From: a virus
Lineage: Duplodnaviria; Heunggongvirae; Uroviricota; Caudoviricetes
IMG/VR virus record: IMGVR_UViG_2534682060_000017
Span: 1 to 40,668 of that record
Reading direction: 5' to 3' (one strand)
Length of the DNA: 40,668 nt
Shown: positions 1 through 13,159 of the stretch, one piece after another
Layout: each line of letters opens with the position of its first letter
Numbering within the stretch: position 1 is the stretch's first letter
Notes under the pieces: generated by a model
What the model saw: the letters and a program-made list of their open reading frames with translations, nothing else
The model's database searches: none
Told to the model about the DNA's origin: nothing
Translations under genes and position numbers: made by a program

Positions 1-1020
1 CTACTTACTGACCACAAGCGGCAAATCCAGTGTTGGTGTTATTTTGGTTTTACGATCGTAAATCAACACCTGATTTTCTGTTTTGTGTCCACTGAAAATT
101 TGTTTGTCGCGACTGCTGCCTTCGTAATCTGAAATCCCTTTGGCTTTTATGTCATGGAAGTTGCACCCAAACGGAACGCCGGCTTTTTGCTCGGCTGCAC
201 GTTTAGCCTGATTCCACCAGTTGTTCAGCGTCTTGGCTATTACCTTCCCGCCTTTGGTTGTGTTGATCACATACTCGCATGTGCCGGAAGATACATTTCG
301 GGCTAACTGGATCGCCGTACGTAATCGCGGAGACCATTCCTTGATTTGTTTAGTGCCGGTCTTGTTTTGCTCAATGTAAATCCCTTTCTCCATAATATCC
401 TGCCATTTCAGCTCGAGTACATCACCGAGCCTTGCCGCACAAAGATAGGATATCTCCATTGCAATACGTAACTGTGGAATTGCTTCCGCATATATTGCAG
501 CATACTGTTCATCGGTGATGTAAACAGTACGGGCTTTAAGTGTGAATTTTCTGACTCCTTTGCATGGATTATTTTTCACATACCCACGCTCATATCCCCA
601 TCCGTATACACGGCTCAGACTTGCCAGTTCATGGTTTGCCTGGGTCTTGCTCTCAAGTCCTCGCTTATCCATGAAAATTCTTACCTGTTCAATTTTTACA
701 TTATCAGCAAGCACTTTTCCGAATACTGCCAACAATGCCCTTTGATGTTGCCGATAATCTTTTTGGGTTCGGGGGGCCAGTTCTGTAAATGCAGGGGAGT
801 CCATAAACATGTGCCATAATTTAGCTACTGTCATTATGTTGTGGAGTTTTGCTTTTTCCAGCTCATAATTTTGCCAGACTTTAGCTACGCTGGTTTCCCG
901 CACTCTTCCGAGCCCTATAGTTCTTGTGCTTCCTTCGGGTTTCCATACGTAACTGTAACCATTCGATCTAACACGCGGTGGTAGTGCATTATCTTTTTTG
1001 TTTTTTCTTGGTCTTCCCAT
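1..1020 (-). CDS. int: Phage integrase, tyrosine recombinase family
   Basis: 339-aa ORF complete with stop at 1-3; lambda-Int-like length and C-terminal His/Arg/Tyr-containing region (..SGHKTENQVLIYDRK..); sits at prophage left end next to an excisionase-like gene. Confidence 0.9.
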   Translation of the reverse strand: MGRPRKNKKDNALPPRVRSNGYSYVWKPEGSTRTIGLGRVRETSVAKVWQNYELEKAKLHNIMTVAKLWHMFMDSPAFTELAPRTQKDYRQHQRALLAVFGKVLADNVKIEQVRIFMDKRGLESKTQANHELASLSRVYGWGYERGYVKNNPCKGVRKFTLKARTVYITDEQYAAIYAEAIPQLRIAMEISYLCAARLGDVLELKWQDIMEKGIYIEQNKTGTKQIKEWSPRLRTAIQLARNVSSGTCEYVINTTKGGKVIAKTLNNWWNQAKRAAEQKAGVPFGCNFHDIKAKGISDYEGSSRDKQIFSGHKTENQVLIYDRKTKITPTLDLPLVVSK

Positions 1021-1306: not shown

Positions 1307-3778
1307 TTAAAAATCAACCGGATTCGGGATCAGTTTTTGCCAGATTGCTGAAACGTATTTTGCCTGGTAACGGGCGTCATCAAGTGCATTATGGCGCTCA
1401 CCTTCGAATGGAATAGCCGTTCTGGCATCGAAGTCTATGGCTTTCCCCAGCTCAACGATTGTGCGTACATCGCGATCGTTGTAGTAACGCCACGGGCAGG
1501 GGATCCCCTGCCGTTCGTATGAACGGCGCAAAATCGTGTTGTCGAAGTTGGCTCCATTTCCCCAGACCTGAACAAAAAATTCACCGGAGTTTTCGTCGAT
1601 AAATTCCCGCAATTGTAACAGTGCATCATCTAACGGGATTTCATCGGTCATAATGGCAGATTGCGCTTCGCGTGATTGCTTAAGCCACCATTTAATGGTG
1701 TCCCGATCAATGACTCCGCCAGCAGTTTCCAGATCGATAGTCTTACTAAATTCCGGTCCCATATCTCCGGTTTGCGGATCGAAAAATATTGCACCTATTG
1801 AGATAATCGGGGCATCAGGATTTTTTCCCATGGTTTCAAGGTCGATCATTAGATGGTCACACGTCCTGCTGGTGGATGTGATAACGTGATGACCGTTCAC
1901 CGTAATTAAGGGATCTGCCGTCTCGCCAGTTTCACTATCGCTGGCGTGATCCTGAGCGCTGCCAGCATTCTCTTTGTGTGGATGTTCAGCGCCTTCCATT
2001 TTCTCCGAATCGTCTTCCTGAACTTCAACCTGGTTCTTGTCATCGAATGTTTCCTGGTATGTTGCGTCGCCCATCACCGCACCACAATCAGGGCAGTTGC
2101 CGCCGCCGGTCTGACCGCAGGCGGTGCAGACTTTTTCCGCTTCCTGTTGCGCTACTGGCTCAGGTTGTTTCGTTTCTGGCTCGTTTTGTAACGCATTTGG
2201 GCTGTTTTGTTCCGCTTTCTGGTCGTTCTGTTCCGTTTCTTGCTGGTTCTGATTCACTGAATCGCGGGTTTCAATCCCCTTCACCCATTTCGGATCATTC
2301 GGGTCGCTAATCCCTGCAACAAATTCACCACGTGATACAGCAAGCAACTTATCGGCGTCAGGCTGGCTGATATTGGCTGCCTGCATAATTTTGTTTACTT
2401 CGTCAGCGGTAACTTTTACCGGCTCTGGTTGTGCGGTCGTGTCAGATGCACCAGTATTTTGTTGTGAACCTGAGTATGTACCGTTTTTACGGGCAAAATA
2501 TTCTTCTTTCGTGATTTCAGTAGCCCCTGCAGTCAGCGCCTTATTCAGACCAGAAAGTTTGTTTGCGCGACCATATTTTTCGCCATCCTTATCTGTGAAG
2601 AGGAAGTAGAACGGCCCCTCACGCTCTACAGATGGTTCGACTTCAACTTTGCATTCGGTTTTTTCGTTGTCCGGAATTGCCGTTTCCACTGCATCAGTTT
2701 CTGGTACTGGCGACGAGAGAGTATCAGTTGCGCTCTGATTTGTTCCTTCATCTTCAAACACGCCCTTTGTAGTCAGGTATTCAGTAATGTATTTGTTCAG
2801 TGCCACAGGGTCTTTGTGAATGTCGATCGGACGTTCACGGACAAGGCCAAAAATAGTCTGTCGGTCGTAGCGAAGGGCATCAGGCTGTTTGCGCATTGAT
2901 GCCGAGATACGCTTCCAGTCTTCGCGGTCGTTGTCGATAACTTCATTTTTTGCCCAGCGATGGATGCTGCCGTCAATGTTTCCGGCATCCACATCACCAG
3001 GCCAGAGAGCGTAGGCCAGTTCGTCATCCAGTGTTTTCCATGTCTGCTTGTATTCGCGATGAGTGGCAGCAATGACCGGGCTGATTTTTCCTGTTGAATT
3101 GTCAGTGTACTGTTGATTGGCTCTGGCGCGGGCGAGATCAACAACAGACGTGTATTTTCCGGTTTCCTTGCGTTCACCTTCGCGACGTTTTTTCCAGATG
3201 CGCATCTCTGCCTGAATTTCGGGCCATTTAGCACCAGGAATACATTTATGCTTAACCCACCCAATGGCGTGCAACTTAAGCTCCGGATACATGGCGTTAA
3301 CTTCTGGCATTTTCATCAACGCTTCAACGATATGTCCGTCGAATGTTGCCATGTCTTCCTGCAACAATTCCTGTGCGCTAATAACCATATCAACGGTGAT
3401 GTTTTCACATGTGTCGAACTTAACCAGGACCGCGTTCTGTACTTCAGGGGACAGCTTGTCAAAATTGACGTTCATCGGATCGGATTCTGGCTCGACCGGA
3501 ATAAAGGAAGCGGATTCCTCATCCCAGCAGTTTTCCTGCATATATTCGGTATCCCAGGAGTCGATGGCAGGGCGGGGCATGCCGGGTTTATCCTCGCAAA
3601 CAAGAAATTTATAAGCGCAGTCCTGAGCAGCCGGATATTGCTCCAGGAATTGCCAGGTAAATTTGGCTCGGGCGCGGCGTTCGTCGCCGGCTTCAATGGC
3701 AGTGGCTACAGCGACTGCACCTTCTTCCTTTATTGCCTGTTCGTCCGGAATGGCGGCGCAAATAAAGACTTTACTCAT
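1307..3778 (-). CDS. RecE-like exonuclease (exodeoxyribonuclease VIII-like) with C-terminal DEDDh/DnaQ-like 3'-5' exonuclease domain
   Basis: 823-aa ORF; C-terminus carries DLETMG ... HNALDDARY motifs typical of DEDDh exonucleases; central acidic low-complexity linker; GAGG about 10 nt upstream of ATG. Confidence 0.8.
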   Translation of the reverse strand: MSKVFICAAIPDEQAIKEEGAVAVATAIEAGDERRARAKFTWQFLEQYPAAQDCAYKFLVCEDKPGMPRPAIDSWDTEYMQENCWDEESASFIPVEPESDPMNVNFDKLSPEVQNAVLVKFDTCENITVDMVISAQELLQEDMATFDGHIVEALMKMPEVNAMYPELKLHAIGWVKHKCIPGAKWPEIQAEMRIWKKRREGERKETGKYTSVVDLARARANQQYTDNSTGKISPVIAATHREYKQTWKTLDDELAYALWPGDVDAGNIDGSIHRWAKNEVIDNDREDWKRISASMRKQPDALRYDRQTIFGLVRERPIDIHKDPVALNKYITEYLTTKGVFEDEGTNQSATDTLSSPVPETDAVETAIPDNEKTECKVEVEPSVEREGPFYFLFTDKDGEKYGRANKLSGLNKALTAGATEITKEEYFARKNGTYSGSQQNTGASDTTAQPEPVKVTADEVNKIMQAANISQPDADKLLAVSRGEFVAGISDPNDPKWVKGIETRDSVNQNQQETEQNDQKAEQNSPNALQNEPETKQPEPVAQQEAEKVCTACGQTGGGNCPDCGAVMGDATYQETFDDKNQVEVQEDDSEKMEGAEHPHKENAGSAQDHASDSETGETADPLITVNGHHVITSTSRTCDHLMIDLETMGKNPDAPIISIGAIFFDPQTGDMGPEFSKTIDLETAGGVIDRDTIKWWLKQSREAQSAIMTDEIPLDDALLQLREFIDENSGEFFVQVWGNGANFDNTILRRSYERQGIPCPWRYYNDRDVRTIVELGKAIDFDARTAIPFEGERHNALDDARYQAKYVSAIWQKLIPNPVDF

Positions 3779-4064: not shown

Positions 4065-4247
4065 TCAGCGTCCTTTTTGCATCAGGCGTAAACGGGCCAG
4101 CATTGAAACAATGCATATTTGATTTAATAGCTCCCGTTCGTGTTTTCTCTTGTTAATGGCATCTTCAGTAAATACAGGGTTACTGATTCTGACACCAATT
4201 TCAAAACAACCTTCAGACGTATTGACGTTTGGTAATAACGTTTCCAT
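4065..4247 (-). CDS. Hypothetical small early-left protein (kil-like position)
   Basis: 60-aa ORF; GAGGA RBS 7 nt upstream of ATG at 4247; position corresponds to kil in Rac/lambda early-left operons; identity not verified. Confidence 0.45.
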   Translation of the reverse strand: METLLPNVNTSEGCFEIGVRISNPVFTEDAINKRKHERELLNQICIVSMLARLRLMQKGR

Positions 4248-4265: not shown

Positions 4266-4423
4266 GAATTTTGTGATGCGGTGCCTGGTGCCTCCAGGTG
4301 ACGTTAACCAGTTAACAATTAACGCCGGATACAGGGAAACCCATAAACCCCCGATACGGGGGAACTAATCGCTTTTTAACTGTTCCGCGTGCGCTTAGCC
4401 GCATTCACCGCATCACAAAATTC
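4266..4423. repeat. Perfect 18-bp inverted repeat pair (GAATTTTGTGATGCGGTG / CACCGCATCACAAAATTC) flanking a 122-bp segment
   Basis: Arms at 4266-4283 and 4406-4423 are exact reverse complements; interior has two GTTAAC palindromes and a CCCCCGATACGGGGG hairpin. Confidence 0.6.
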
Positions 4424-4791
4424 ACTTTAAAAAGGGCGGACATCAGCCAGCAATTAAACTGATGCCGCCAAAGGTCTCACACAAGCCTCAACATGGAGAT
4501 GTTGTGGCGGGGTTGTCACTCAGGCGTATGGTCAACCTGACAACCCGGTGCTACCAGTGGGGGTAAGGATAACCCCGCCATACTTACCGCCGCGCCATTT
4601 CGCGGAGTGCCACAACCGGAAGCGCACGGTCGAAGATACCGGCGACACGCAACAGAGGGAGAAATGACTTCGCCGTGCGCTTTCGTGTTGTGTGCCTGCT
4701 TTTAACCACGTCAGGCGAGGTGGTTCCTGTCATTCCCCAACGACAAGAAATCTGTATAATCTGGATATCCCCAACGATCCAAGGAAATCAT

Positions 4792-5391: not shown

Positions 5392-5444
5392 GAATATCCA
5401 GAATGTTAAAGAGCATGCCGGAGATTTATCCGTGTCCGGCGCAT

Positions 5445-5469
5445 GTTCTCCACCTTACCCGTGGAGAAC
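5445..5469. terminator. Hairpin between convergent genes (possible bidirectional terminator)
   Basis: 9-bp perfect stem GTTCTCCAC / GTGGAGAAC with 7-nt loop, between the SieB-like gene end and the minus-strand gene end. Confidence 0.4.
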
Positions 5470-5844
5470 TTAATGATTAATTGATATTTTATAGTTGGCT
5501 TCAACTTTCCCATCTGAAGTGGGATGCTTTAAATCACAGGAATTAATGTTGCACTCAGTAAAATGGTTTTTAAGGGGTTCTATTCGAATCCCTTTCTTTT
5601 CCATCAACAAACCAAACCCCTTGTTAATGATATCCATTAATTCCAGGAAGTATTTTTCAGAGGAATCATGCTTATCAGAGTGCTGCTTCTCTTCGTACAA
5701 CCCGATAAAGGCACGGCGCACGTTACCGGATATATTATCTATGGTTTCTTTTTCTACGGTACTCAGGTCAAGAGTCGCCAGTTGGGAACGAACTATATTC
5801 GCTGCCATTTCCTGGAATTGCATTGGTAAATCTTTAAATTCCAT
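5470..5844 (-). CDS. Hypothetical early-left protein
   Basis: 124-aa ORF; GAGG RBS 6 nt upstream of ATG at 5844; TGATG overlap with upstream gene stop. Confidence 0.5.
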   Translation of the reverse strand: MEFKDLPMQFQEMAANIVRSQLATLDLSTVEKETIDNISGNVRRAFIGLYEEKQHSDKHDSSEKYFLELMDIINKGFGLLMEKKGIRIEPLKNHFTECNINSCDLKHPTSDGKVEANYKISINH

Positions 5845-5855
5845 AGTCAACCTCA

Positions 5856-6008
5856 TCAGTCAGTATTTCTGGCTAACCAGCGACGCGCGCCAGATTCGGT
5901 TTTAAACGTTTTGCTTTTGGTATACGTCATCGCGGTGAATATGCCGTCCTGGTTGGGAAACACGCCGTATACCAGAGATTCGTTGTTGCCAAGATCGATA
6001 GTATCCAT
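5856..6008 (-). CDS. Small Rac-type early protein (YdaF/YdaG-like, 50 aa)
   Basis: ATG at 6008 preceded by GAGG (5-nt spacing); product MDTIDLGNNESLVYGVFPNQDG... resembles small proteins encoded next to racR in Rac prophage (from memory). Confidence 0.5.
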   Translation of the reverse strand: MDTIDLGNNESLVYGVFPNQDGIFTAMTYTKSKTFKTESGARRWLARNTD

Positions 6009-6188
6009 GTTGACCTCATGTCCCCTTAACGCCGGGGTAGCGGAACAAAAACCTGCTGCATAGTTATTAAAGTTGAACCCTGCCGTCATGTTCTTACGCC
6101 TCGGGCTGGCTACTTAACCCCTGACCACTGCCTGGTAACTCGAAGTATTGCCCTGCGTTCTGTGGGGCGGGGTGGGTGGTATGCTGGA

Positions 6189-6217
6189 ACTATAGGTAAT
6201 GCCTAATTGATTGTCAA
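6189..6217 (-). promoter_or_regulatory. Predicted leftward early promoter (pL analogue) with overlapping operator half-sites
   Basis: On minus strand: TTGACA, 17-bp spacer, TATAGT; spacer and flanks contain TTAGGC/GCCTAA motifs shared with the racR-ydaS intergenic operators. Confidence 0.45.
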
Positions 6218-6327
6218 TAGGCTATGCCTAATGTTTTGATCGTAACCTAATAGGTGATGGCGACAGCAGAAAGTGATGGGGGGGTTAAATAACGGAATCT
6301 AGGAGTTTTCCGTCAGACCATATAAGT

Positions 6328-6804
6328 TTAAGTTCCAGTTTTTGTGATGTTCTGGCTTTTCCGTTCAGATTCTAGAGCTTTCAGATACTTACCCACTTTC
6401 ATTTCCATCGCTGCTATGTAGGCGCGAACATCGTGGTCAACCCAATCTGGTTCTGTAGCATTTCCAGATAACAGGAAAGCTACAATCGCTCTTATTTCAT
6501 CAGAGGCTGCTTGATAAAGGTTGTTTATATCTAAAAGTTCACTTTTTGTATCTGAATTGGTGGGGGTTGGTATGGGGTATTCGTTAAGCCCCCAATGCTC
6601 TGGACCAACAACATCAGAAAAGAAACGCCATAATTCTGGAAGTTTATCTTTACTTATAGAGCCTTTCTTAATCCAGTCATAAATTGATGGTGGTTGGACT
6701 TTGAAGTGGCGTGCGACCTCCGCCTTTGATTTGACGGATCCCGATGCGATTTTTTTGTTAATGGCCTGCTCTATCGCTCGGCCTAAGTCTTTACCACTAA
6801 GCAT
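6328..6804 (-). CDS. racR: Rac prophage repressor RacR
   Basis: 158-aa product beginning MLSGKDLGRAIEQAINKK... recognised as RacR; AGGAG RBS; divergent from ydaS/ydaT. Confidence 0.85.
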   Translation of the reverse strand: MLSGKDLGRAIEQAINKKIASGSVKSKAEVARHFKVQPPSIYDWIKKGSISKDKLPELWRFFSDVVGPEHWGLNEYPIPTPTNSDTKSELLDINNLYQAASDEIRAIVAFLLSGNATEPDWVDHDVRAYIAAMEMKVGKYLKALESERKSQNITKTGT

Positions 6805-6849
6805 TGCTTAATATTCTCCTATGCTCATTGCATTAGGCAATCCCTACCT

Positions 6850-6901
6850 TTATCGCATTAGGCATAGCCTATTGACATTTGCGTTAGGCGTCGCCTAATA
6901 T
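6850..6901 (+). promoter_or_regulatory. Predicted rightward early promoter (pR analogue) with palindromic operators
   Basis: TTGACA (6872-6877), 18-bp spacer, TAATAT (6896-6901); spacer contains perfect palindrome TTAGGCGTCGCCTAA; upstream near-palindrome TTAGGCATAGCCTAT. Confidence 0.5.
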
Positions 6902-6927
6902 TTCTGTGTGTTTTTGGAGTTCATTCG

Positions 6928-7224
6928 ATGAAAAAAGAGAACTATTCATTCAAGCAAGCTTGTGCTGTTGTCGGTGGGCAATCAGCAATGGCTAGGCTTT
7001 TAGGTGTATCACCTCCAAGCGTAAATCAATGGATCAAAGGGGTACGTCAATTGCCTGCCGAGAGATGTCCAGCAATTGAACGTGCAACAAGAGGTGAGGT
7101 TCTGTGCGAAGAACTTCGTCCTGATATTGACTGGTCATATTTACGACGTTCGGCATGTTGTTCGCAGAATATGTCAGTGAAGCAACTAAATGACAGTAAC
7201 AAATCCTCATTTGATCATACCTGA
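6928..7224 (+). CDS. ydaS: YdaS-like Cro/HTH-type protein of the RacR-controlled toxic module
   Basis: 98-aa product MKKENYSFKQACAVVGGQSAMARLLGVSPPSVNQWIKG... (HTH); GGAG RBS; divergent from racR. Confidence 0.8.
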   Translation: MKKENYSFKQACAVVGGQSAMARLLGVSPPSVNQWIKGVRQLPAERCPAIERATRGEVLCEELRPDIDWSYLRRSACCSQNMSVKQLNDSNKSSFDHT

Positions 7225-7246
7225 AACATCAAGAGGCAAATGATTC

Positions 7247-7672
7247 ATGAAAATCAAGCATGAACACATCCGCATGGCGATGAATGCCTGGGCGCGTCCT
7301 GATGGCGAAAAAGTTCCAGCAGCTGGAATAACCCAGGCTTATTTTGAGTTGGGTATGACGTTTCCTGAACTGTATGACGATAGCCATCCGGAAGCCCTGG
7401 CTCGCAATACCCAGAAAATTTTCCGCTGGGTAGAGAAAGACACTCCTGATGCGGTTAAAAAAATTCAGGCGTTGTTACCGGCTATCGAAAAAGCAATGCC
7501 ACCTCTGCTGGTGGCCCGGATGCGCAGCCACAGTTCAGTCTATTTTCGGGAGTTGGTGGAGACGCGGGAACGACTGGTGAGAGACGCTGATGATTTTGTC
7601 GCAGTGGCAATCGCCGGTTTCAATCAGATGAATCGTGGTGGCCCGGCAGGAAATGCTGTGGTGATGCACTAA
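7247..7672 (+). CDS. ydaT: YdaT-like protein
   Basis: 141-aa ORF immediately downstream of ydaS; AAGAGG RBS; matches Rac gene order racR-ydaS-ydaT. Confidence 0.8.
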   Translation: MKIKHEHIRMAMNAWARPDGEKVPAAGITQAYFELGMTFPELYDDSHPEALARNTQKIFRWVEKDTPDAVKKIQALLPAIEKAMPPLLVARMRSHSSVYFRELVETRERLVRDADDFVAVAIAGFNQMNRGGPAGNAVVMH

Positions 7673-10654: not shown

Positions 10655-13159
10655 ATGGAGAAAACATTTATTTCGGAAATATTATCAGCTTATCATCATT
10701 TACAATTAGAAAATGCAAATGAAGCAGCCACAAGACTAAAAGTGATAGATCGGGTATTAAAGGAAGTCTTGATGTGGACTGATAGTGATATAAAACCAGA
10801 AGAGCATGTGACTGAAGATGGTTTGACAACTTATGCTGATTATATACTAAAAACAGCTAATATTGCTCTTGTTGTTGAAGCTAAAAAGGCAGGGCCAAGC
10901 TTTAGTACAATTCCAGGAAAAAGAAAAATAAAGCTAAGTAATAGTTTTTTACAAAGTGATCTTGGTGAAGCGATAATACAAGCTAGAGATTACGCCAGGA
11001 AATTTGGTATAGATTATGCTGTCGCTACGAATGGAAATGTATGGGCATGTTTTGCAGCTCAGAGGCATGACAATGTCAAATTTAATGATTCAATAGCGCT
11101 TGTGTTCTGGTCGTTAGAAGATTGCTTAAATGATAATTATCAAGAATTCTATGATTTACTTAGTCGTGAAAATGTTATATCAGGAAGTCTAGAAACAGCA
11201 CTTTTAGGTCGCGTCGAAAATCAAATAGAATTTAGAAAATTAAGAAATTTTTATTCGCAACAAAACAGAACACAGACAAATAATCCAATATATCATTTGA
11301 TTGCTGATGAATTAAGGTTGGCTTTTTCTGATTCTATACTTTACTTGGATGAAGACTCCTTTGATAAATGTTATGTTTCAACACCAGAAACTATGAGATT
11401 CGATAGTAAAATTAGAATGAATATAGGTAGGCGTTCAAGTGTGCTGAATGGTGAAGTACTAAAAGGGCTTAATGATAAAGATACAAAAAGAATAGTTGAT
11501 AAGTTTCAGGTTAAAGGGAAGAAAAAAATAAAAGTCAGGAATGACAAACCTCTCGCGATCTTGTTACTTGGGACTGTAGGTGCAGGTAAAACAACATTTC
11601 TTCATTACATGAGAAAGGTTAGAATAAAAGAGTTTTTTTCAAATCAATGTGATATCTTGACGCCGCATTGGGTTCATATAGACTTTCTAGATAATCCATC
11701 AGAAAGTTCAATAGTCGATTTTATTTATAAATCAATTCTGGAATATATCAATAAGCATCCTGTTTTGAGTAATAAGGATTTTGTATTTGATGCATTTCGA
11801 GAAGATATTGAGGCGATAAAATCAGGACCTCTTTTTTTATTGAGTGAGGATCAAAAAAATACCAGAATCTCGGATTTTTTATATGAACAATATAAAAAGA
11901 TAAAACCTTATGTTGATAAAATAATAAGTCGCGTTACAAAAGAGACATCTTTTTTTCTTGTTATTGATAACGTTGATCAGATCGAGTTTGATGATATCCA
12001 GTCCCGGATATTTACCGAGTCATTTTCAATTTCCAGAGCGCTTTCATTAAATTTAGTACTTTCATTGAGGCAGTCTACATTTATCAAACATAAAAACTCA
12101 CCTGCTATAGATGCTTTCGATTTTGAAGTTATACAAATAGATCCACCGAGAATAAGTAGTGTGATTGCAAAACGCTTTGCACTAGTAAAGTATATGACAA
12201 GTAATAAAAGTGGAAATTTTATTGCAGAAAATGGCGCTAAAGTTGTATTGGATGATATATCACAATTAGTCGATATTATTAGTGGGTCTGTGCTGGGAAG
12301 TGAGATTGGAACACGTATTGAAGTTCTTGCTACGGATGATGTTCGATTAGCATTACGTATGACTCGTGAGTTCTTAGAAAGAGGGTATACGAGTCCAGGT
12401 AAAGCAGTACAAATTTTCAGAGAACAAGGAAGATATCTTCTTCCACGTCATGAGGCATTTAGAGCTATATTACTGGGTACTGAGTTGACTTATAGCGAGT
12501 CAACGTCGACTATTGCGAACCCGTTTGATTCGAATTTAGCTGTGACACAAATGCAATTATTGAGGCTGTACATTCTTAATGTTATCGTTTCGTATGCAAG
12601 CGATCCCGGATTCAGACAAATCGATGGTTCGGTAATAACTGAAAAGTTAAGGTTAATTGGTATAGGTGACTCTTTCACGCATCGAGTTCTCGTTGATTTA
12701 TGCAATAAAAGGTTTTTGTTCACCGTAAATCACGGAGATCCAACAGCTTCATCAAGTTTCATTCCTTCTCGGCTGGGGGGGTATATTGCAAAAGAACTTA
12801 TTAGTAATTTCACGTTTATAGAGTGTATGCTTTATGATACATATATTGCTGATGCTAAGGTATGGAGTAGATTAAGAGATCTGAGTGCTAGAATTGAGTC
12901 TGAAAGAGATGTAATAAAAAGGATCACAATGCGTGTAAGTCGAGCAAAAACTTTCTATTATCAAATGGAAAAACTTATTTCACCGCTTTGTTCCGAAGCT
13001 ATTATAAGAGGGTTGCCTTCACAATGGTGTTCTAACCCTCTTCAGGAGCGTTTACCTGAGTTAAGAAAAGAACTAAGAAGAGTTCTTAATTCTGCAAAAA
13101 AAACATATCAACCGAAACAGGATGATTCGTCTAAGTATTTCCTTGATGAAACGGTTTAA
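10655..13159 (+). CDS. Candidate anti-phage defence protein: N-terminal HsdR-N/Mrr-like PD-(D/E)xK nuclease domain fused to P-loop NTPase (Walker A GTVGAGKTT, Walker B FFLVIDNVD) and C-terminal helical domain
   Basis: 834-aa ORF, markedly AT-rich versus flanking phage genes; N-terminus ATRLKVIDRVL..LMW ... ADYIL ... VVEAKK fits the HsdR-N/Mrr D...ExK pattern; Walker A at aa 306-314, hhhhDN Walker B at about aa 433-439; flanked by AT-rich non-coding DNA. Confidence 0.85.
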   Translation: MEKTFISEILSAYHHLQLENANEAATRLKVIDRVLKEVLMWTDSDIKPEEHVTEDGLTTYADYILKTANIALVVEAKKAGPSFSTIPGKRKIKLSNSFLQSDLGEAIIQARDYARKFGIDYAVATNGNVWACFAAQRHDNVKFNDSIALVFWSLEDCLNDNYQEFYDLLSRENVISGSLETALLGRVENQIEFRKLRNFYSQQNRTQTNNPIYHLIADELRLAFSDSILYLDEDSFDKCYVSTPETMRFDSKIRMNIGRRSSVLNGEVLKGLNDKDTKRIVDKFQVKGKKKIKVRNDKPLAILLLGTVGAGKTTFLHYMRKVRIKEFFSNQCDILTPHWVHIDFLDNPSESSIVDFIYKSILEYINKHPVLSNKDFVFDAFREDIEAIKSGPLFLLSEDQKNTRISDFLYEQYKKIKPYVDKIISRVTKETSFFLVIDNVDQIEFDDIQSRIFTESFSISRALSLNLVLSLRQSTFIKHKNSPAIDAFDFEVIQIDPPRISSVIAKRFALVKYMTSNKSGNFIAENGAKVVLDDISQLVDIISGSVLGSEIGTRIEVLATDDVRLALRMTREFLERGYTSPGKAVQIFREQGRYLLPRHEAFRAILLGTELTYSESTSTIANPFDSNLAVTQMQLLRLYILNVIVSYASDPGFRQIDGSVITEKLRLIGIGDSFTHRVLVDLCNKRFLFTVNHGDPTASSSFIPSRLGGYIAKELISNFTFIECMLYDTYIADAKVWSRLRDLSARIESERDVIKRITMRVSRAKTFYYQMEKLISPLCSEAIIRGLPSQWCSNPLQERLPELRKELRRVLNSAKKTYQPKQDDSSKYFLDETV

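Follow-up and report, generated by a model that had tools for sequence, protein, structure and literature searches.

RacR, the repressor of the Rac prophage, belongs to the small set of essential transcription factors in Escherichia coli K-12, and several groups have studied its right-hand operator in detail. The region considered here is the racR region of virus record IMGVR_UViG_2534682060_000017 (Caudoviricetes), which was analysed over its whole length of 40,668 bases (hereafter the window). In K-12 Rac, the racR-ydaS intergenic region was reported to hold three GCCTAA/TTAGGC repeats and to yield three complexes with RacR in electrophoretic mobility shift assays (EMSA). RacR was enriched at this region in chromatin immunoprecipitation followed by quantitative PCR, and a ydaS reporter was repressed in a RacR-dependent manner (Krishnamurthi 2017, PMC5700373). 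The ydaST genes displayed a single start site with a TTGACA -35 and a TAATAT -10, and racR three promoters, one of them leaderless. DNase I footprints of RacR led to the consensus (T/A)TAGGC-n3-GCCTA(T/A), with site O1 on the ydaST promoter and site O3 over the racR ATG (Wisniewska 2022, PMC9638921). The right unit, that is promoter pR and operators OR on ydaST, is already established experimentally for K-12 Rac.

The effects of RacR on the left arm of Rac are also documented. Depletion of RacR raised expression of ydaG, ydaF, kilR, racC and ydaE 40- to 70-fold (PMC6765115) and that of xisR/intR approximately 100-fold (PMC11014345); recE, recT and others were likewise derepressed (bioRxiv 10.64898/2026.09.06.749655), and zygotic induction of the Rac recombination genes belongs to classical genetics (PMC5917428). 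These earlier papers did not name the cis element behind the large RacR-dependent changes at kilR, recET and xisR/intR. The genes xisR/intR were described as 'far away from RacR repressor', with no cis element proposed (PMC11014345), and ydaG/ydaF are named in the RacR papers solely in lists of derepressed genes. Neither a left unit nor sites downstream of racR were found in the literature on RacR, a search which did not cover the older work on Rac kil, sbcA and the recE promoter.

Two other E. coli prophages provide close points of comparison. The immunity region of CP-933P is a sibling of the ydaS/ydaT type with an octameric repressor, PaaR2 (Jurenas 2021, PMC8630535). Its promoter PL933P is located downstream of the repressor operon, displays -35 and -10 hexamers identical to those of PR, carries OL1-3 and is regulated by PaaR2 and YdaS (PMC8630535). 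CP-933P differs from the RacR region by its repressor, by its operator consensus GTTTAGTAA and by the toxin-antitoxin pair paaA2-parE2 lying between the repressor and PL. In prophage Qin, dicA is followed by the DicA-controlled promoter dicBp, which drives ydfA (DUF1391), dicF and dicB (PMC10448788), and the left arm of the window was of the same type. DicA, like RacR, is devoid of an autocleavage domain. The difference with Qin lies in DicA and its operators; the RacR cassette occupied the dicA-dicC position in the window.

The racR region of the window very probably constitutes a lambdoid immunity region of the RacR type, in which racR is located between two outward sigma-70 promoters built on one plan, the left unit being the early-left promoter and operators (pL/OL). 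The 22-mer CATTAGGCATAGCCTATTGACA was found exactly twice in the window, at 6856-6877 on the plus strand and at 6212-6233 on the minus strand. No further match was encountered in the window with up to three mismatches, nor in 100 shuffles. The two arms of this perfect 22-nt inverted repeat flanked racR, the left arm comprising operator OL2 with the -35 of pL and the right arm operator OR2 with the -35 of pR. The leftward promoter pL consisted of TTGACA (6217 to 6212, minus strand), a 17-nt spacer and TATAGT (6194 to 6189), and matched the consensus at 11 of 12 positions in a promoter scan. Rightward pR consisted of TTGACA (6872-6877), an 18-nt spacer and TAATAT (6896-6901), with 10 of 12 matches. 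They were the sole strong sites in a scan of 5400-7400, and both pointed outward from racR. Leftward transcription is predicted to start near 6182.

A sequence-only reading of this DNA had pointed out the repeated motif on either side of racR, with a TTGACA and a properly spaced -10 (TAATAT to the right, TATAGT to the left) in each copy. It had located the right copy exactly and the left one approximately (about 6203-6240). Both observations were borne out, as were the TTAGGC/GCCTAA half-sites and the perfect palindrome announced within the pR spacer, TTAGGCGTCGCCTAA at 6884-6898, which overlapped the -10. The hexamer TTAGGC occurred eight times in the window, seven of which fell within 6201-6898. 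It was not over-represented (about 15 occurrences expected), and the half-site count alone was therefore dropped as a signal in favour of clustering and pairing into full sites. A scan of the whole window for TAGGC-N3-GCCTA returned five sites that matched it at 9 or all 10 positions (starting at 6193, 6218, 6834, 6859 and 6885), distributed over two clusters (6193-6230 to the left and 6834-6897 to the right). In 1000 first-order Markov simulations of the window, the mean was 0.69 such sites and the maximum four, and none of the simulated windows displayed two of them within 30 bp.

Both units followed a shared plan and were mirror images of each other. One operator abutted the -35 (CCTA directly followed by TTGACA), and a second one, 25-26 bp away from centre to centre, filled the spacer and overlapped the -10 by two bases. 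In the left unit (6189-6230), OL2 (TAGGCTATGCCTA, 6218-6230, 10/10) abutted the -35 of pL (6212-6217, minus strand), and OL1 (TAGGTAATGCCTA, 6193-6205, 9/10), whose centre lay 25 bp from that of OL2, was located in the pL spacer as the mirror of OR1. With their flanks, OL2 (aTAGGCTATGCCTAa) and OL1 (aTAGGTAATGCCTAa) matched the published footprint consensus at 10 and 9 of 10 positions, respectively. In the right unit (6834-6901), OR2 (TAGGCATAGCCTA, 6859-6871, 10/10) abutted the -35 of pR, and OR1 (TAGGCGTCGCCTA, 6885-6897, 10/10), which corresponds to the published O1 (PMC9638921), lay in the pR spacer and overlapped TAATAT. An OR3-like operator (TAGGCAATCCCTA, 6834-6846, 9/10) and an operator over the racR start codon (TAAGCATTGCTTA, 6798-6810, 8/10) brought the number of sites between 6798 and 6897 to four. 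The latter corresponds to the published O3, overlaps the leaderless racR promoter (PMC9638921) and was found at the equivalent place in all homologous loci. A weak third left site may be present at 6237-6261, where an operator-pattern match (6237-6249, 6 to 8 of 10 positions according to the allele; 3056-3068 in locus L010) was associated with a block conserved in the Escherichia alleles (ACCTAATAGGTGATG, 6246-6260). It was not seen in distant loci, and a regular third left operator was rejected on account of this degenerate match and Escherichia-specific block.

The resemblance to phage lambda, already proposed in the sequence-only reading, was supported and appeared general for RacR-type immunity regions. 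As in lambda, the repressor gene was divergent from a cro-like gene with operators of one consensus between them, and a second cluster of the same consensus overlapped an outward promoter located distally, where the repressor unit ends. Like lambda cI, racR lay between two outward early promoters with tandem operators approximately 24-26 bp apart. Additional sites toward the repressor promoter, a leaderless repressor mRNA, an octamer-forming repressor, and analogues of Cro and CII on the right were also common to both. Differences were nevertheless apparent. The RacR operator is a 13-bp TAGGC-N3-GCCTA site compared to 17 bp in lambda, four sites were found in OR, and two in OL together with the possible weak third one. 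OL and OR were separated by approximately 0.64 kb, in contrast to 2.4 kb in lambda, and neither an N gene nor a nut site was identified in the RacR region. Unlike lambda CI, RacR displays a C-terminal domain that is not of the autocleaving S24 type, and YdaS does not repress racR according to published data. A Pfam domain search of RacR returned no Peptidase_S24 domain, the LexA/CI-type autocleavage domain linked to SOS induction. This domain is frequent in lambdoid repressors and not universal among them.

Conservation of the left unit within Escherichia was pronounced. K-12 Rac was identical to the window over 6184-6239, which covers the -10, OL1, the -35 and OL2, and displayed only five base differences over 6090-6330. 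The stretch 1424440-1424521 of MG1655 record NZ_CP025268.1 is the equivalent of 6184-6265 in the window. The RacR protein was identical as well (WP_000948459.1), as was YdaS (WP_000712069.1), and the racR-ydaS intergenic DNA was 98% identical. The footprinted elements of K-12 (OR1, the ATG site, the ydaST promoter hexamers and the operator consensus) were all shared with the window. The alleles of O157:H7 and O111:H8 were 87-89% identical over the region and retained TATAGT as the -10 of pL. In the stretch from the mosaic junction to the racR stop, one of 30 half-site and hexamer positions of OL was variable, compared to 37 of the 114 remaining positions (four alleles; Fisher p = 8e-4). In OR, one of 50 promoter and half-site positions was variable, compared to 23 of 78 others (Fisher p = 4e-5; four alleles). 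The two variable functional positions were bases already deviating from the consensus, that in OL being position 6197, the sole variable half-site position of OL1. Within OL2, only the central spacer base varied among these alleles, and the entire 3-nt spacer of OR1 was replaced in O157/O111, both half-sites being kept. The racR gene was present in 1086 of 5426 complete E. coli genomes, in 582 of which the allele was K-12-like, with at least 95% identity. With megablast, the 82-nt left unit was retrieved from 592 E. coli genomes, approximately one per K-12-like allele; the O157-like allele falls below the sensitivity of megablast for an 82-nt query, yet keeps the left unit.

The unit composed of the second operator, TTGAC, the first operator and a -10 flanked the repressor operon in ten further loci and phages, with a single outward-facing copy on either side. 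The loci and phages included E. ruysiae, Mixta mediterraneensis, Proteus mirabilis and Morganella morganii (62%, 60% and 57% repressor protein identity for the last three, respectively), Klebsiella phage KpF5 (56%) and Escherichia phage vB_EcoS-683R6. They also included an Achromobacter metagenome-assembled genome (MAG) and Pigmentiphaga daeguensis, where identity was 75% over the first 77 residues. In distant loci, TAATAT or TACTAT was encountered at the position of the pL -10. The left unit was placed after the distal end of the repressor transcription unit, and its distance to the repressor gene was not constant. The gap between the repressor stop codon and the left unit was 64-130 bp in most loci, but reached approximately 1.2 kb in Pigmentiphaga and 1.4 kb in KpF5, where extra genes were inserted. 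In KpF5, a DUF450 gene and an intrinsic terminator (GCGGGAT...ATCCCGC followed by T7) lay between racR and the left unit (locus L021, 3149-4359), and this insert is a moron placed like rexAB and its terminator between cI and OL of lambda. A contig of 5.2 kb attributed by binning to 'Candidatus Nanosynbacter sp.' (L009, JARKOR010000130.1) also encoded a RacR with 100% identity to the E. coli protein; this contig is almost certainly E. coli DNA mis-binned in a MAG.

Some repressors of Burkholderiales genomes and Pseudomonas phages shared only the N-terminal part of RacR, their first 73-77 residues being 52-75% identical and their C-terminal part different (L015, 2501-3598; L016, 2501-3406; L022, 3001-3852; L023, 3001-3861). 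The two Burkholderiales repressors displayed a C-terminal Peptidase_S24 domain of the LexA/CI type (Pfam E-values from 1e-13 to 4e-15). Those from Pseudomonas were annotated just as 'CI repressor'. TAGGC-N3-GCCTA operators were present on both sides in the Burkholderiales loci. Similar, weaker sites were found on both sides in D14H (in the intergenic region and at 6049-6085), and at the intergenic region only in VW-6S. This distribution suggests one DNA-binding specificity combined with swapped C-terminal domains. The RacR DNA-binding domain and its operators may form a single immunity specificity shared by phages of Enterobacterales, Burkholderiales and probably Pseudomonas, with interchangeable C-terminal domains that are either RacR-type or S24 and SOS-cleavable.

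Phages that are otherwise homologous exchanged the immunity region as a cassette, in the manner of a heteroimmunity mosaic. E. coli prophages with other repressors shared the flanking sequences up to approximately 6183 and from approximately 7240, at the start of ydaT. The exchangeable cassette (6184-7240) therefore extends from just after the predicted pL start through ydaS and comprises pL/OL, racR, OR/pR and ydaS, the left unit being located just inside its left edge. Cassettes with other repressors displayed different palindromes of their own, mirrored at both ends. Operators at both ends are thus a general design, whose specificity moves together with the repressor.

To the left of the cassette, a repressor-proximal promoter was followed by DUF1391, DicF and dicB, as in the dicBF operon of Qin. 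All these features were on the minus strand. The first gene of the leftward operon was a ydfA-like DUF1391 gene (5856-6008; Pfam E = 8e-28), followed by an open reading frame (ORF) of 128 aa (5470-5856), the small RNA DicF (4434-4483; 45.4 bits, just below the Rfam cut-off of 48 bits) and dicB (4065-4247). A weak STnc100-like match was also observed between DicF and dicB (4270-4422, minus strand). Beyond dicB, the operon continued with a 3'-5' exonuclease, a DUF4224 protein and an integrase; exonuclease, xis and int formed part of the early-left operon into which pL points. In K-12 Rac, the left unit was located upstream of ydaG, ydaF, kilR, ydaE, racC and recET.

The leader of pL was searched for nut- or put-like RNA (6005-6185, minus strand) with Rfam, which gave a negative result, and it folded worse than shuffled sequence (z = +1.7). 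An RNA element in this leader was dropped on these grounds. The predicted pL transcript leader (6100-6185, minus strand) opened with a C-rich, G-poor run, CCACCCACCCCGCCCCACA, a feature common to prophages of other immunity types. This unstructured, C-rich leader may serve as a Rho loading site, which would agree with the role of Rho/NusG in helping to silence kilR, according to reports cited in PMC12482147.

The right unit, together with the site over the racR ATG, drives ydaS-ydaT and is repressed by RacR, as shown in the literature. In the left unit, OL1 and OL2 would be occupied by RacR dimers, which would obstruct RNA polymerase at pL and keep the leftward operon silent. The silenced genes would be DUF1391, DicF, dicB, the exonuclease, xis and int in the window, and ydaG/ydaF, kilR, racC, recET, xisR and intR in K-12 Rac. 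The sequence-only reading had assigned both copies to the control of ydaS/ydaT. This holds for the right copy, which is the published ydaST promoter and operator (PMC9638921, PMC5700373), but not for the left one, which is a separate promoter directed into the early-left operon and could affect ydaST only indirectly, by looping. The location of the left unit upstream of the left-arm genes would explain directly the 40- to 100-fold derepression observed upon RacR depletion, as well as the classical zygotic induction of the Rac recombination functions.

Several points weigh against this reading. In published EMSA and footprint studies of K-12 Rac, the DNA fragments extended only from position -186 to position +85, counted from the racR start; the left unit lies outside of them and is not mentioned there. 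Derepression of the left arm could be secondary, through YdaS/YdaT or through prophage excision. The footprinting within Escherichia relied on four sequences, which fall essentially into two clades, and the substitution test is therefore modest. Lastly, no left unit was detected within 2.5 kb of the repressor in Klebsiella sp. R390 (L013), where pR was degenerate, with TTTTAT instead of the TTGACA -35 (2400-2510). Rather than providing a counter-example, this locus seems to have undergone decay of the entire switch, and may represent a decayed or domesticated one.

Other explanations of the left copy were considered. It could serve mainly as a distal auxiliary operator, from which a RacR octamer would loop to OR and tighten both ydaST repression and racR autoregulation. 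The octameric state of RacR in solution, as observed by size-exclusion chromatography (PMC11014345), is consistent with this, as are the operator pairs 25-26 bp apart in both OL and OR, as in lambda, and the short distance of approximately 640 bp between them. However, the left sites were embedded in a promoter with 11 of 12 consensus positions, whose -35 and -10 were conserved across genera as well as the half-sites, and a site devoted to looping alone would not need them. The OL-OR distance moreover ranged from approximately 590 to 2155 bp among homologues, without constant helical phase. Such a function is compatible with pL/OL as an added role, and is improbable as a replacement for it.

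Far less probable is a role of the left palindromes in ending the racR transcript, either as a terminator or as a protein roadblock, in place of one as promoter operators. A terminator scan did flag TAGGCTATGCCTA followed by ATGTTTTGAT on the plus strand, and no strong intrinsic terminator was found between the racR stop codon and OL, but racR is read on the minus strand, opposite to this hairpin and its T-tract. A better candidate for the racR terminator is a hairpin with a weak T-tail, ACGGAA-N10-TTCCGT (6292-6313, minus strand), located just 3' of the racR stop codon. Its stem was kept in the O157/O111 alleles through paired changes (6296 A>G with 6309 T>C), a compensatory replacement of A:T by G:C. 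KpF5 displayed a clear intrinsic terminator ahead of the left unit, and termination would leave the conserved -35 and -10 unexplained. Least probable of all, the left copy would be a non-functional duplicate or a recombination scar of immunity-module exchange, as might be imagined from its position within a few bases of the mosaic junction (approximately 6184) and from the perfect 22-nt identity in the window. Against this, the unit was kept with repressors of only 56-62% identity and in Burkholderiales sharing the N-terminal domain only, several distant loci harbored copies differing outside functional positions, and substitutions avoided half-sites and hexamers. K-12 already differs at one spacer base, and hence architecture rather than perfect identity is the conserved property.

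With the left unit taken as pL/OL, a bridge between OL- and OR-bound RacR over approximately 640 bp, similar to that formed by lambda CI, may be envisaged because purified RacR is an octamer. Octamers would join OL1-OL2 with OR1-OR2 in a loop of approximately 0.64 kb around racR, silencing both early operons and setting racR autoregulation. This proposal is speculative and should be regarded as tentative, the more so as the authors of the octamer result placed it at the racR-ydaS intergenic region, where four sites would take up four dimers (PMC11014345). Constant helical phasing of OL and OR was rejected, as none was apparent from their spacing, which was 591-641 bp and reached 2155 bp.

In the window, racR (6328-6804, minus strand) encodes 158 aa with an N-terminal helix-turn-helix and is divergent from ydaS (6928-7224, plus strand), a Cro analogue matching Pfam YdaS_toxin and P22_Cro. 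The CII analogue ydaT (7247-7672, plus strand) is located 3' of ydaS. The Pfam families are still named YdaS_toxin and YdaT_toxin, and a toxic module had also been assumed in the sequence-only reading. This view is outdated, as YdaS and YdaT are now seen as Cro-like and CII-like regulators and not as a dedicated toxin pair (PMC5917428, PMC8630535, PMC11879457), a toxin-antitoxin relationship having been found unsupported in an earlier study (PMC5917428). YdaT is a CII-like activator acting at the YdaT box (PMC11879457). The sequence ATGATTCATGAAAATCAA at 7240-7257, which spans the ydaT start codon and sits on the right mosaic junction of the cassette, exactly matched the published YdaT-box reference (ATGATT-n6-AATCAA), and it was the only match in a scan with the full pattern. 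A YdaT box in the left unit was rejected, as the half-site-like TTGATT at 6207-6212 was not conserved in O157/O111.

The window is a separate lambdoid prophage carrying the Rac immunity cassette, and not Rac itself. A near-identical prophage of strain TK3896 adjoins yccA, and Rac uses the ttcA site; the two prophages are therefore different. The integrase end of the prophage corresponds to the start of the window (1-1020). A RelE/ParE-ParD toxin-antitoxin pair was annotated by RefSeq in the TK3896 prophage, on the opposite strand, at the place corresponding to 11777-12339 of the window, and falls within the rightward early/late region of that prophage.

The left unit is an expected lambdoid feature that apparently had not been pointed out before for RacR. 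As it follows a textbook lambdoid design, the gain is one of completeness and not of a new principle, and it represents a modest extension of the known work on RacR. If the loop around racR were true, the published octamer, now placed as four dimers on the intergenic region, would have to be reinterpreted, and the control of the 'far away' xisR/intR, kilR and recET by RacR would be explained directly. A pL/OL defined at the level of single bases and identical in K-12 would offer a simple and direct mechanism for regulation of the left arm. In prophages like this one, with a dicBF operon of the Qin type, RacR is predicted to control the cell-division inhibitors DicF and DicB.

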